From Eledone cirrhosa (lineage: Eukaryota): a stretch of 64,000 nt of DNA. The stretch is from contig OZ024742.1 in the NCBI GenBank assembly GCA_964016885.1, positions 4,464,001 through 4,528,000 of the forward strand, in the 5' to 3' direction. A program made the translations under genes and the position numbers. Shown here piece by piece: positions 11,290 to 59,344 of this stretch. Below the pieces are notes generated by a model. That model saw nothing but the letters and a program-made list of their open reading frames with translations, had not been told where the DNA came from and made no database searches. Numbering within the stretch: position 1 is the stretch's first letter; each line of letters opens with the position of its first letter.

Positions 11290-11937
11290 TCTCTGTTAGC
11301 CTCCTCCTCAACTTTCACTCACTCATTCTCTGTCACTACCTCTCCTCCTCCTCTTTCCTCCTCCTCCTTCAAGTTTGACCTGTGTGTAATTCTTTTCTCG
11401 CGCGGTCTTGACCGAGCTGGTATGGAATTTTTTTCTCTCTCCCTTTCGTCTGCGACTTCACAAAACTTGCGTTTACCGAATTCGCAGACCAGACCCCTTT
11501 ATCTTCTTCTTCTTCTTCTTCTTCTTCTTCTTCTTCTTCTTCTTCTTCTTCCTCTTCTCTCCTTTTTTTCTCTCTCTCTCTCTCTCTCTTTTCCCCCCCG
11601 TCAAACTTGGGCGAAATTCTTTCCTTGCTCACATTTCAACCAGGTTTGATGGTCTTTTGTCTCTTGTTCACGATTTCACAGAGTTTATATTCATAGAGAT
11701 CTGGGACTTGTCTATTTCTACTCACTTTCCGTTGCTAAAACTTTTTTGTTGTTACTCTGGCGTCCCCCCTTTATTTACGTGTCCCAACGACTTTTTTTAG
11801 CCGTTGTTCGCACCAACCCGAGGCATATGGCCCTTAAAGCGATGAAATGCCCAGGACGGTTGGAGGGTCACTGATGAAGGACTCACTTTTTCATATGTAT
11901 CCCATTTGCAACGCCGCAGCTCCATTATTATCATATT

Positions 11938-38359: not shown

Positions 38360-38367
<8 letters not shown>

Positions 38368-38928
38368 AGAAAAAATGGGGAGAAGAATACTGCAGGTTGC
38401 ACATGGATAACATGTAATAAAATAAGTCCCTCATCAGTGATTTGCCGACGATCATAGATATTTCATTGCATTAAAAATCATATACCTCACGTCGGTGCAA
38501 TAATAACTAAATTAAGTTATTAGGACAATTAAAACGCGTAAAGCGAGTGAGACAAGATAACAACAAGGATAGCTAACCGTGGAAAGAAGGAGACAAGCTT
38601 CATAGTTATTCTGTTAGCATAAGCTAGGTGAATATATGAGCGCTTAGAAAAAAGACCTTTCAGCAGCGAATTCAAATGTGAGAGAGAGAAAATGATTTCG
38701 TCGCGAACGGGGTGAAGTGAGAAGAGGAGAAACAGTGACTGAGTGAGGAAGAGTTAACGGACGTGACAGAGGGGGCGAAAGAAAGTAGGAGAAACAGAGA
38801 GAGCGAGGGAGCAGTAAGAGAGAGAGAGAGAGAGAAAAAAACAGAATCGCAGTATAGGTAAATATATGTGTGAAAAAATGGGGAGAAGAATACTGCTGGT
38901 TGCACATGGATAACATGTAATAAAATAA
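38360..38928 (-). mobile_element. Repeat family K copy, partial tandem (38360-38425 repeated at 38865-38928)
   Basis: Terminal direct repeat; body similar to 8530-9165 in reverse orientation; (TA)n flanks. Confidence 0.75.
38430..38495 (-). ncRNA. Candidate permuted k-turn hammerhead (family K)
   Basis: Minus strand: ccgacg-t-GA-ggtat-A-tgattt-ttaatgcaat-GAAAtatc-tat-GA-t-cgtcgg-c-aaatca-CTGATGA-g. Confidence 0.6.
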
Positions 38929-41064: not shown

Positions 41065-41813
41065 CAAATAACGAAACGAAATTAAATTTCGTTTCGTTTG
41101 TAACTCACTTTTGTATGACTGACGCTTAAACAATTAAGTTAAAAATGTACATCTACATATGCATACTGAAATACTAGTGTGTATATGAATACACACACGT
41201 ATACATATGTAGGTGTACCAAGTCTTTCACTGGTCGCTTTACAGTGAGCGGCCCAGCTATTCTGTATGTAAACACACAGACAAACCGGTTTTTAGAGTCA
41301 TACTGGTTTTCGGGGGAACACCTTCCCTCTATTCTCCAGAAATTGTTTAAGCGTCAGTCATACAAAAGTGAGTTACAAACGAAACGAAATTTAATTTCGT
41401 TTCGTTATTTGTTTTTATCGTCTCCGCTGAACCGGTGCGTACTCACACTCTATGCAAATTAGTCTGCCCACTACTAATTTTCATAGAAAAAGCATATAAC
41501 GATATGTGCTTTTACAATTCTCCAGAAAGGCCGGTAGATAGGTAAATATTGCTGATGAGTTGTAACAACAACGAAACTAGTTCAATATTCCTTGTCTGGC
41601 TTTCTGGAGAATAGAGGGAAGGTGTTCCCCCGAAAACCAGTATGACTCTAAAAACCGGTTTGTCTGTGTGTTTACATACAGAATAGCTGGGCCGCTCACT
41701 GTAAAGCGACCAGTGAAAGACTTGGTACACCTACATATGTATACGTGTGTGTATTCATATACACACTAGTATTTCAGTATGCATATGTAGATGTACATTT
41801 TTAACTTAATTGT
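41060..41813 (+). mobile_element. HHR repeat family F: inverted block 41060-41340 + forward unit 41341-41813, in (TA)n
   Basis: 41130-41340 is the reverse complement of 41603-41813. Homologous to 60559-61404. Confidence 0.82.
41545..41589 (+). ncRNA. Minimal type I hammerhead
   Basis: aatattg-CTGATGA-gttgt aaca acaac-GAAAC-ta-GTT-caatatt. Confidence 0.85.
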
Positions 41814-52205: not shown

Positions 52206-52813
52206 TTTGTATTACGAATAAATAACTAAGCTGAAACGTTGCTAAAATCGCTCTGTTAAATCACAATCTGCAATCTCAGAAATAAACATAATATTACATA
52301 ATATTTCCTTGTCACACACACACCTTTAGATCTGTGGATTTTAACGACTGGAATGTTATTCATTGCAGGTTTGTTTCAATAGAGCATATCTGGAGATTAA
52401 CAACGACAGAGTTAATGTATGTGACGTGAGGAAGGGTTAACATTATATTGCATCCATCATTGTTTACTAACATGGCAACATGTTTCATGCGATAATATTT
52501 AAAGAAAATCCTTACATCAAACCTGTTGCTGTAAAACACACTTGAAATCCATTATCTACTTTAAATAAGAAGTTTTCTCGTATTGAGCCATTGGTTGGTG
52601 GAGCATTCCATCAATTCTACTTTCCTACTCACCACTCACCACTACACTATACATAAACAGAATATAAGGTTGGTATATATATAAATAAGTATATATAAAT
52701 ATATATATATATGTGTGTCTGTCTGTGTGTATATATATATATATATATAAAACATGAGAAGAAAGAAGAATACTGCGTGGTTGCACATGGGTTACATATG
52801 ATAAAAATAGTTC

Positions 52814-52879
52814 TTCGTCAGTGATTTGCCAACCATCATTGATATTTCATCGCTTTAAAAATCATAAACCTCCGGTTGG
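52814..52879 (-). ncRNA. Candidate permuted k-turn hammerhead (family K; host fragment ~52760-52948)
   Basis: Minus strand: ccaacc-g-GA-ggttt-A-tgattt-ttaaagcgat-GAAAtatc-aat-GA-t-ggttgg-c-aaatca-CTGACGA-a. One mismatch in proximal stem III. Confidence 0.5.
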
Positions 52880-52945
52880 TGCGAGCATTTACTATAAAAA
52901 GCTATTGGGACAAGTAAATCGCGTAAAGCGAGTGGGACAAGTAAA

Positions 52946-56399: not shown

Positions 56400-57150
56400 A
56401 ACGATCGCTCTATTCTGTTATTTAATAAAATGTTTTTGGATTTCATAATACAAAATAATTCTACATTACATAATTTACAAAATTCCTGTCCGTGGGATTA
56501 TGGGGGGGGGGGGGGGGGGCAGCCGCTATTATATCCCATTTAAGGTGAAATTGTTGGTTATTTTCACGCAGCTGCCAAGCCTTGTCTGCGAGTGTTGTTA
56601 CATAACGCTGGTTTTCATGTTTTATCGAGTAACGATGTCTATAAAGGCGTGATTTGAAGGAGGTGGCTGTAGATCCCACATAGTACCACTTCTGTCTATC
56701 CGATTCGATAGTACATTTGTATACGATGTTGCGTTCAAGACACTGATTGTTCAACGGACACATTCCTGGTTGGGCACAGTTGCAATTATAATTTTGCGTT
56801 GTTGTATTGTCATGGATGGGTTGATGAGGTTGCTTAGGTAGGACAGGATGTTGTTTGTTGTTTTGTGATGTTATAGCTAATGTTTTACGTGTATTGTTAT
56901 GTGTTGGAAGGCGTTTATACAACCGTTTTGCGTTAAGCTTTTTTATATGTTGTTCAATATTAGGGGCGGTTGAATATGAAAGTCGAATAGTGTTAGGGTT
57001 TAAGATTTTATTATATTTATGTGATGTTGGAAAGTGTTTTTAACTAATCGAAAGAATTGTGAGGGTAGATTGGTTTTAATAGTGTTGTTTTAGACCGGGT
57101 TGTACCAAATATACTCTTTACATCGCCTTCTGTTTGGTGGTGTGCGACTA
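56400..57150 (-). pseudogene. Naiad-like PLE thumb + GIY-YIG fragment
   Basis: CNCAQPGMCPLNNQCL, IVYKC, YYVGST..FKSRLYRH, LKWDII. Confidence 0.85.
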
Positions 57151-57155
57151 TTATT

Positions 57156-58315
57156 GTGTCAGCATACGCCTCTAAAATGGAAAGGCACCAATTGGATATG
57201 TCGTTAAAAAACATACCTATTCAGGCAAAAAGGGAATATATTCTAGGTATGATACGAAGGACCAATGATTTTATTCGACGAATCAGATGGAAAACATTCC
57301 ATTTTGACAAAAGCCGTATAAACCAAACATCGGATCTTAACAAGGATAAATTTGGATTTAAATCTTACAAGAACCCACCCTCAAACCCACTTTTGGATGC
57401 ATTTGAACAAGACCTAATGGATATGATCATGGAGATCAAATTTACAAAACGGAAGAACAATAAACTACAGAATGACATCACGGCACTGCTCAATAATCTA
57501 AAAAACGCCAATGGAATTATTGTTAGAGCAGACAAAACATCAAATGTATATACCATGGATGTGGACACTTACAATAACTTCATCCGTAAGGAATTGCATA
57601 AAAAATACAAGAAAACTAATGAAGCTACACTTAAAAACATCAACAACTCGGCATGTGAAATTGTTAAAAAACTTTGTATTGACGATAGAACGCAACCCTT
57701 AAAACCAGCTATACCATCCTTCAACCTGAAGGACCACAAGGTAAACTTCGATACTAACCCTAATATTAGACTTATATGCCCCTCTAAATCTGATATAGGC
57801 AAAATTAGCAAATATATACTAGACAGAATTATCCCCCAAGTTAAGGTTAAAGTAGAAATTAAACTATGGGGTAACACTCATGAAGCAATAAGATGGTTTA
57901 ATAACATTACTGATAAGAAAAAAATCAAAATTTATTCAGTTTGATATTGATGAATATTATTCCTCAATTTCACCTGATACTCTACATGAAGCTCTTTCGT
58001 TCGCTAAGGCTAATTCCGACCTTACGGATGCTGAAATTAAAATTATTATGGAAGCGAGGAAAACTATAGTTAAATTCGATGATAGCTACTGGGTTCGCAA
58101 AGTTAGACCTTCTAATTTTGATATTACTATGGGTTCTAATGATTCGGCGGAAGTAACAGATCTTGTGGGAACTTATATCACCCACAGACTACAAGGAAAA
58201 TTCAAGGATCTCCACGGTGGAATCTACCGTGATGATGCGCTCCTATTAGTTAAGCATATGAATAACCAGAATTTAGAAAGGATGCGTAAAAATATCAGAA
58301 AGCTTTTTAAGGAAC
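57156..58315 (+). pseudogene. Naiad-like PLE ORF N-terminus and RT core, one frameshift near 57925, truncated at 58315
   Basis: SLKNIP, FIRRIRWK, ADKTSN.Y, LKDHKVNF...RLICPSKSDIGKISK, FDITMGSNDSAEVTDLVG, GGIYRDDAL. Confidence 0.9.
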
Positions 58316-58642
58316 CTTTTCTCGCGGGCATTTGGCCAAGCCGGTATGAATTTTTTTCTCTCTCTCTCGTCTGCGACTTCACAGAACTTATGTTTACCGA
58401 ATTCGCAGACCAGACACCTTCTTCCTCCCGTTAGACCTGTGCGAAATTCCTTCCTTGCTCACATTTCAACCAGGTTTGATGGTCTTTATTCTCTCGTTCA
58501 CGATTCCACCGAATTTATATTCATAGAAATCTGGGACTTGTTTCTTCTTCATCACTTTCTGTTGCTTAAACCATTTTGTTTGTTTACCCTAGCGTCCCCC
58601 TTATTTACGTGTCCCAACGACTTTTTTTAGCCGTTGCTCGCA

Positions 58643-58708
58643 CCAACCTGAGGTATATGGCCTTTAATGCGACGAAATGCCTACGACTGTTGGAAGGCCA
58701 CTGATGAG
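58643..58708 (+). ncRNA. Candidate permuted k-turn hammerhead (family K)
   Basis: ccaacc-t-GA-ggtat-A-tggcctt-taatgcgac-GAAAtgcc-tac-GA-c-tgttgg-aaggcca-CTGATGA-g. Predicted cleavage after 58657. Confidence 0.6.
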
Positions 58709-59265
58709 GACAAACTTTTCATATGTAACCCATTTGCAGCGCCGCAGCTCCATTATTATCATATTTACACATATATTTTTTTCCTCCGCTGCCACCAGTC
58801 TGTTTCGTTCTTTGTGTCTTTACCCTTTCTAGCAGTCTCTCTCTCTCTCTGTTAGCCTCTTCATCACCTTTCACTCACTCACTCTCTGTCACTACCTCTC
58901 CTCCTCCCCTTTCTTCCCGTTTGACCTGTCCGTAATCCTTTTCTCGCGGGTACTTTGCCTAGCCGGTATGAATTTTTTTTCTCTCTCTCTCGTCTGCGAC
59001 TTCACAGAACTTATGTTTACCGAATTCGCAGACCAGACCCCTTCTTCCTCCCGTTAGACCTGTGCGAAATTCCTTCCTTGCTCACATTTCAACCAGGTTT
59101 GATGGTCTTTATTCTCTCGTTCACGATTCCACCGAATTTATATTCATAGAAATCTGGGACTTGTTTCTTCTTCATCACTTTCTGTTGCTTAAACCATTTT
59201 GTTTGTTTACCCTAGCGTCCTCCTTATTTACGTGTCCCAACGACTTCTTTTAGCCATTGTTCGCA

Positions 59266-59331
59266 CCATCCTGAGGTATATGGCCTTTAATGCGACGAAA
59301 TGCCTACGACGGTTGGAAGGCCACTGATGAG
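59266..59331 (+). ncRNA. Candidate permuted k-turn hammerhead (family K)
   Basis: ccatcc-t-GA-ggtat-A-tggcctt-taatgcgac-GAAAtgcc-tac-GA-c-ggttgg-aaggcca-CTGATGA-g. Predicted cleavage after 59280. Confidence 0.6.
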
Positions 59332-59344
59332 GACAAACTTTTTC

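Follow-up and report, generated by a model that had tools for sequence, protein, structure and literature searches.

Standard simple k-turns such as Kt-7, U4 and the SAM-I riboswitch combine a 3-nt loop with the G1b-A1n and A2b-G2n pairs between a C and an NC helix (PMC5061560, PMC4382518, PMC5689011). The motif described here shares all of these features, together with C-G at position -1, a purine at L2, and replacement by other kinks in relatives. Unlike the standard k-turns, it lies in stem III of a mobile-element ribozyme motif and occurs with at least eight forms of the 3b-3n pair. In RNase P and the lysine riboswitch other kinks can take the place of a k-turn, and an impaired k-turn can be folded by tertiary contacts alone (PMC5061560).

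Type-SGC hammerheads, represented by HRIMA-1 and its variants, share with the present motif the S-G-C block order, the full core and a short linker from stem I to stem II (PMC10085705). They came from metatranscriptomes, and that paper reports none in genomes of known organisms. In hammerhead geometry stem III is stacked beneath stem II, directed away from stem I, and the crystal structure places distal stem III far from the I-II side (Eckert 2023, PMC10085705). For the environmental permutations, that paper leaves open how distal stem III gets to the side of stems I and II. In HRIMA-1 a helix joins the distal strands of stems I and II, whereas the present repeat has a four-way junction and a stem III that is extended and kinked; its motif is genomic and high-copy, in contrast to the environmental RNA of HRIMA-1 (PMC10085705). 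Because the distal stem III helix and 1 nt precede the stem I strand, the repeat is of type SGC but is not HRIMA-1. The terms 'kink' and 'k-turn' have no occurrence in the text and supplement of PMC10085705.

Like the repeat, Naiad elements occur as 5'-truncated copies in tandem or inverted arrangement, with a tail at one end, and target (TA)n (Craig 2021, PMC8557442); unlike them, the repeat has no ORF. That source reports no canonical hammerhead in Naiads, only 'HHR_core' or 'half core' labels. Non-LTR retrozymes share non-coding tandem units, a Penelope-like origin and one ribozyme per unit (Li 2026, 10.64898/2026.07.22.740005), but they are defined by type I hammerheads, and a type I descriptor would miss the repeat's family. 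Searches of openly licensed PMC papers and bioRxiv brought up no description of either a natural hammerhead with a k-turn or an SGC hammerhead in Naiads, and an earlier description elsewhere is possible.

Architecture of the motif and its copies in the window

The window is the whole 64,000-nt stretch of Eledone cirrhosa DNA that was analysed. The SGC motif carrying the k-turn lies towards the 3' end of a non-coding, high-copy repeat, here inserted on the minus strand, and comprises the following features.

38361..38928, minus strand: non-coding repeat unit, 503 nt plus terminal direct repeat, Penelope/Naiad-like, non-autonomous
38523..38526, minus strand: GUCC strand pairing with 38429-38426 and extending the 5' side of stem II (88% of cells paired)
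38501..38522, minus strand: 7-bp hairpin, an arm of the four-way junction capping stem II (double changes in 4/7 pairs)
38497..38500, minus strand: UUGC strand pairing with GCAA at 38469-38466 (96% paired)
38490..38495, minus strand: k-turn NC (distal) helix, non-bulged strand CCGACG (double changes in 5/6 pairs)
38487..38489, minus strand: k-turn U3n, G2n and A1n (conservation counted across copies)
38481..38486, minus strand: block S, stem III 5' strand GGUAU (k-turn C helix), H17 = A
38475..38480, minus strand: stem I strand UGAUUU, 3' of the predicted cut (double changes in 5/6 pairs)
38457..38469, minus strand: block G, comprising GCAA, U11.1, GAAA and the stem III 3' strand AUAUC
38451..38456, minus strand: k-turn 3-nt loop UAU, G1b, A2b and U3b
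38445..38450, minus strand: k-turn NC helix, bulged strand CGUCGG, joined to stem I by the single nucleotide 38444
38426..38443, minus strand: block C, comprising stem I strand AAAUCA, core CUGAUGA at 38437-38431, G10.1 and GGAC
11774..11883, plus strand: second SGC hammerhead copy with k-turn, loop CAG, 3b-3n C-C
52809..52918, minus strand: third SGC hammerhead copy with k-turn, loop AAU, 3b-3n U-G
58604..58713, plus strand: fourth SGC hammerhead copy with k-turn, loop UAC, 3b-3n C-U, in tandem with the fifth
59227..59336, plus strand: fifth SGC hammerhead copy with k-turn, loop UAC, 3b-3n C-U

The k-turn motif occupies the minus strand from 38495 to 38430, with CCGACG-U-GA-GGUAU opposite AUAUC-UAU-GA-U-CGUCGG. 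Read along this strand, CCGACG (38495-90), U, GA (38488-87), GGUAU (38486-82), A (38481) and UGAUUU (38480-75) are followed by a 5-nt linker, GCAAU, GAA, AUAUC (38461-57), UAU, GA (38453-52), U and CGUCGG (38450-45), and finally by C, AAAUCA (38443-38), CUGAUGA (38437-31), G and GGAC. A plus-strand motif was rejected, the core and the GA pairs being readable solely on the minus strand.

The order of the blocks, namely the cut-site block (S), the GAAA block (G) and the CUGAUGA block (C), is type SGC in the scheme of Eckert 2023, and a canonical type I, II or III hammerhead inside one unit was rejected on this order. The core is complete in the family (CUGANGA, GAAA, U16.1 and an H17 other than G); among 98 copies H17 was A in 76, C in 21 and U in 1, with G excluded by the descriptor itself. 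The predicted cut lies in block S between 38481 and 38480 of the minus strand. Stem III consists of 5 bp running into the k-turn consensus, and stem II is one covarying pair, 10.1-11.1 (U-A, U-G, A-U, C-G), seated on a four-way junction with upstream sequence. Such an SGC hammerhead, with a k-turn consensus in stem III, departs in architecture from the SGC ribozymes described previously.

The five window copies have their cores at 11871+, 58701+, 59324+, 52821- and 38437-, and together contain every k-turn string quoted in the original prediction; copy 58701 has a single mismatch in the distal helix. The SGC descriptor returned five sites in the window, exactly these copies, all with the k-turn consensus, against a background from 300 dinucleotide resamplings of 0.027 SGC sites and 0 SGC-plus-k-turn sites per window. 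The five copies are not independent, because all belong to one repeat family. Rfam at gathering thresholds gave no match in the whole window.

Covariation of the fold

Covariation was assessed on 53 rows hand-picked from the main family, of which 101 copies with 78 haplotypes were at hand; most of the truncated copies and the five singletons with mutated GA were excluded, and since the latter are absent, GA invariance in this alignment is no test. The 33-pair structure paired 94.0% of cells, compared with 86.2% in shuffles, 0/500 of which were as high, and with 26-46% when the structure was slid along the alignment. Double changes occurred in 18 of the 33 pairs, distributed over the distal helix (5/6), stem I (5/6) and stem III (1/5), although such counts overstate independent events because the copies are related. 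Further pair types were no more numerous than in shuffles of these rows (443/500). The C helix had 96.5% of cells paired and the NC helix 94.2%. The distal helix covaries, as the original prediction had noted.

None of the helices is palindromic, and all of them close within a span of about 100 nt. A single nucleotide connects each strand of the distal helix with helices of the stem I/II side. The minimum-energy fold of the 38361..38928 copy, in which no pseudoknots are represented, kept the distal helix with stem III slipped (z = -1.85). In addition, the linker UAA between stem I and stem II (window 38473-38471, minus strand) is kept in 97-98 of 98 main-family copies and, having no assigned pairing partner, is a candidate tertiary contact.

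Conservation of the k-turn in the main family

Genome-wide, the core pattern gave 12,904 matches against 0 in the control and a looser pattern 15,655 against 5, and the main family exceeds 13,000 copies. The non-bulged GA (G2n, A1n) was present in 13,064/13,483 cases (96.9%), and the bulged GA stood exactly 7 nt after GAAA, with a 21-nt spacer, in at least 11,874/12,904 (at least 92.0%). Among the 100 core matches listed, eight fail the bulged-GA spacing as judged by eye, five through a longer distal strand and three through a changed GA. A further pattern with 425 matches (control 30) already contained both GA and so gives no measure of their conservation. The genome-wide conservation of both GA positions and of the bulge length, one of the points on which the original prediction rested, is seen in the main family.

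Finer resolution was obtained from 98 main-family copies, 8 of 106 having been dropped for a cut or changed 5' anchor. The non-bulged GA is present in 95/98, and a 3-nt bulge followed by G1b and A2b in 96/98; without loci L051-L070, which were chosen with a GA-containing pattern, these counts are 73/76 and 74/76, in a subset that retains a few copies from the GA-requiring pattern. The claim that both GA are invariant holds as near-invariance within the main family and does not extend to the sister families of the same genome. The bulge varies in sequence at a constant 3 nt, as had been proposed, with 11 loop sequences among the 98 copies, all of 3 nt by the anchoring used. L2 is a purine in 98/98, L3 is U in 68/98, and -1b:-1n is C-G in 91/98.

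The 3b-3n position takes eight pair types: U-U 38, C-U 24, U-G 13, A-A 8, A-G 7, C-C 5, G-A 2 and C-A 1. Watson-Crick pairs were observed in 0/98 against 21 expected if the columns were independent, a contrast weakened by relatedness. Genome-wide, A-U at 3b-3n occurs in 70 copies, one tandem array included, and is rare rather than absent. Judged by its sequence, the k-turn consensus in stem III is real and conserved. Contigs of four sequencing runs from one study showed no joint and no common variant at the four GA positions; being of unknown kind, they were excluded from evidence on expression.

Sister families and the history of the bend

Sister SGC families were found by patterns that leave the k-turn unfixed. 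Families with stem III GAUGU/ACAUC, AUGGU/ACCAU and AUAGU/ACUAU gave 274, 139 and 43 matches, with 0, 2 and 0 in the controls. In the ACAUC family, position 2n-1n among 100 matches listed was, by eye, UC in 49, UA in 39, GA in 5 and other in 7, and by script over 46 rows UC 23, UA 14, GA 6 and others 3. Both GA were found in 5/46 rows of GAUGU/ACAUC, 10/27 of AUGGU/ACCAU and 3/30 of AUAGU/ACUAU, these rows representing older copies, some of them picked with a GA-containing pattern.

The UC form has a Watson-Crick helix with a plain 3-nt bulge, and its 3b-3n has turned Watson-Crick (U-A in 11/18), while the UA form resembles the non-standard Kt-23 (PMC5061560). Some forms of the AUGGU/ACCAU and AUAGU/ACUAU families have the bulge, of about 5 nt, on the opposite strand. 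In each main family the stem III arm measures 13-15 nt along the shorter of its strands, the other strand having 3-5 nucleotides more, and the arm is interrupted 5-8 bp from the core in every family examined.

A tree was built from 45 chosen copies after masking of the k-turn columns. On it GA/GA appears in four separated groups, and UA, then UC, is nested within one starred branch; the tree is unrooted, with long branches and 218 columns. A single clade of GA/GA rows was rejected (p-AU 5e-6), and the tree has five changes. From these alignments the k-turn is likely ancestral and lost at least twice. The conserved feature is the bend, with the k-turn as one solution to it, probably the ancestral one. 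A 50-degree kink is not strictly needed, because the UC family still spread with its Watson-Crick helix and 3-nt bulge.

Two variations were observed in passing. In the copy at L108:1500-1560 (plus strand), nested in the UC branch, the 3-nt bulge has switched to the opposite strand with the arm length unchanged. In L112, L114, L117, L122 and their relatives (ACAUC-UC), 10.1 is A and 11.1 is C in 18/18 clustered copies; since these positions appear to pair upstream, the core may sit directly on the four-way junction without the stem II pair.

Inverted junctions at the predicted cut site

Head-to-head junctions were found near the core in 31 cases (control 3). Arms begin at the base after H17 in 18/62, one chance base being allowed, compared with null expectations of 6.9 (uniform, P 0.0001) and 8.4 (geometric, P 0.001), in a test chosen after three such junctions had been seen, one of which is in the test set. 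Another 10 arms begin one base further in, at 4-nt near-palindromes possibly favouring fold-back. These counts suggest the existence of templates whose 5' end lies at the predicted cut site, which is no proof of catalysis. An ad hoc 5'-boundary scan, confounded by divergent families, was discarded and the junction-arm test used instead.

Proposed role of the k-turn and alternative explanations

The stem III k-turn is likely, on balance, to be the bend that lets a single RNA close the permuted core and cut itself. Because stem III points away from stem I, a monomer would need a sharp bend in the arm. A tandem or read-through transcript would fold the SGC core, with the k-turn folding the 14-bp stem III arm back to stems I/II; Mg2+, together with the pull exerted by the helices of the ribozyme itself, would bring about the kinked fold, and 15.5K/L7Ae would be able to bind without being required. 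Cleavage after 38481 would yield a unit-length RNA, perhaps circularised, which a Naiad-type RT/endonuclease would copy in trans into (TA)n. The one unit plus overlap of the window copy and the long tandems elsewhere would fit a template that is circular or multimeric. The proposal that the bend brings stem III back to stem I agrees with the 1-nt ties of both distal strands and with an arm interrupted in every family. Counting against this reading are the form of stem II, a single pair on a four-way junction, the spread of the UC family, the slipped stem III of the minimum-energy fold and the failure to find an autonomous partner.

The repeat family offers a genomic, high-copy case with a concrete candidate answer, the k-turn, to how distal stem III reaches stems I and II, and the natural series of GA/GA, UA, UC and opposite-strand bulge makes the geometry directly testable.

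Box C is RUGAUGA and box D is CUGA. U-U at 3b-3n is present in the 38495-38430 copy and in 38/98 main-family copies, and the original prediction took it to mark a box C/D type. This assignment is weak for the window copy, which has nothing but U-U in common with box C/D; it is Kt-7-like with C-G at both -1b:-1n and 4b:4n, and the box C/D G-C at 4b-4n is absent. RUGAUG/CUGA occurs in 14/98 copies and full RUGAUGA in 0/98, and a box C/D snoRNA was rejected on these counts.

C-G at -1 and at 4 is ion-folding (PMC5689011), and C-G at -1 with a non-Watson-Crick 3b-3n favours folding in Mg2+ alone (PMC4382518, PMC5689011, PMC8191799). Under the published folding rules, 50 of the 98 copies fall in the good class (3b = C or 3n = G) and 0 in the poor class. 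L7Ae-family proteins bind standard k-turns, and binding is hence expected in the main family (PMC8191799); L7Ae/15.5K would probably bind in vitro. An in vivo need for such a protein is unsupported, and a host protein is probably not required, because sister repeats use other bends.

The alternative that survives best, though we consider it unlikely, is a host-gated ribozyme whose k-turn stays open until 15.5K/Snu13 (L7Ae family) binds, making cleavage and retrotransposition host-dependent. Most standard k-turns do fold upon L7Ae binding (PMC8191799), the L7Ae-contacted G1b and G2n (PMC5061560) are kept in the main family, L3 is often U and RUGAUG/CUGA recurs at the frequencies given above, and U-U is merely 'middle-folding' (PMC5689011). 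Against this, C-G at -1 is the rule (91/98), 3b = C or 3n = G in half of the copies or more (50/98), and the Watson-Crick 3b-3n of the protein-dependent U4 type (PMC4382518) is found in 0/98. The intact k-turn family also outnumbers the exact matches of the three sister patterns (more than 13,000 copies vs 274, 139 and 43), but this gap can reflect age, exact patterns missing old copies, and sister families without G2n or without any k-turn spread too. If true, 15.5K gating would constitute a natural protein-gated self-cleaving RNA tying retrotransposition to a host factor. Independently of any such use by the host, a natural hammerhead k-turn is a ready scaffold for L7Ae-responsive switches.

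It is improbable, to a somewhat greater degree, that any flexible bulge of 3-5 nt would be enough and that GA/GA is simply inherited with no k-turn formed. The UC, UA and opposite-strand bulge families speak for this, as do the Naiad 3' ends read by eye, most of which are without GA/GA (PMC8557442). Yet GA/GA persists in four separated clades with different stems, and the purine at L2, C-G at -1 and non-Watson-Crick 3b-3n are k-turn signatures that would otherwise have no reason to persist; in the UC family, which lost the motif, 3b-3n became Watson-Crick (U-A, 11/18). Least probable is a domain-swapped dimer, in which two tandem units or RNAs exchange blocks into circularly permuted cores and the k-turn sets the dimer's shape: many copies are in tandem and dimeric cleavage is reported for small Penelope hammerheads, but the helices are all non-palindromic and closed within about 100 nt, the window insertion carries one ribozyme, and SGC monomers cleave in vitro (PMC10085705).

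The repeat element and its relation to Naiads

In the unit at 38361..38928 (minus strand) the 3' end bears (TA)n and the 5' end a short TA run, and this insertion holds one ribozyme. Elsewhere in the genome the units measure about 500-750 nt and form tandem arrays, which hold many of the copies, as well as inverted truncated pairs. The truncated copies in tandem and inverted arrangement, the tail at one end and the (TA)n target are all Naiad traits, and on these sequence features the repeat is classed as a Naiad-like non-autonomous unit. No ORF with an N-terminal GIY-YIG plus RT was found up to 4.5 kb upstream of 212 repeat copies, nor any autonomous partner (a Naiad-like ORF upstream) among them, and a metagenome scan with the main-family pattern gave 0 matches. 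At 57069-58430 (plus strand) of the window, broken Penelope-type RT fragments run into an SGC repeat unit; the fragments before 58669 look like an insertion site, with the repeat inside another element.

Published Naiad 3' ends were read by eye, covering part of the 54 consensus ends. The ends of Naiad_Obim and Naiad_Ovul (Octopus) show the same SGC fold with a GA/GA k-turn, a 5-bp stem III, a 3-nt loop and U-U, in different stems, and their upstream hairpin loop is similar to that of the repeat (PMC8557442). The Acropora, Morbakka, Euprymna, one Clytia and one spider Naiad read as SGC with other interruptions and no clear GA/GA (PMC8557442). Nematode Naiad 3' ends read as type-CSG hammerheads (PMC8557442 supplement), a type represented by just two metagenomic sequences in PMC10085705. 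Six bivalve Naiad 3' ends showed no hammerhead core in the stretch viewed (PMC8557442). The oyster, ark-clam, pearl-oyster and razor-clam Naiads have a different conserved GC-rich 3' motif in common (PMC8557442), possibly another structured or self-cleaving RNA.

It is likely that the hammerheads of Naiads in animals at large are permuted non-circularly, with the order SGC in molluscs, cnidarians and arthropods and CSG in nematodes. These readings suggest permuted hammerheads that escape type I descriptors, and the SGC fold with k-turn read in the Octopus Naiads may account for the published absence of hammerheads from Naiads. The joint proposition, that permuted Naiad hammerheads are animal-wide and that in this lineage a k-turn makes the SGC ribozyme switchable by the host spliceosomal/snoRNP protein 15.5K and so ties retrotransposition to a host factor, is unlikely.

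Additional hammerheads in the window

Canonical type I minimal hammerheads are also present in the window at 41552+, 61074+, 60262-, 59680-, 5396- and 17047+. Most have a short self-complementary stem III, being of Penelope type and probably dimeric, and none reaches the Rfam threshold. At 12129- and 12614-, two repeat copies 485 nt apart carry, as read by eye, CUGAUGA, a long stem II and GAAA in type I order.
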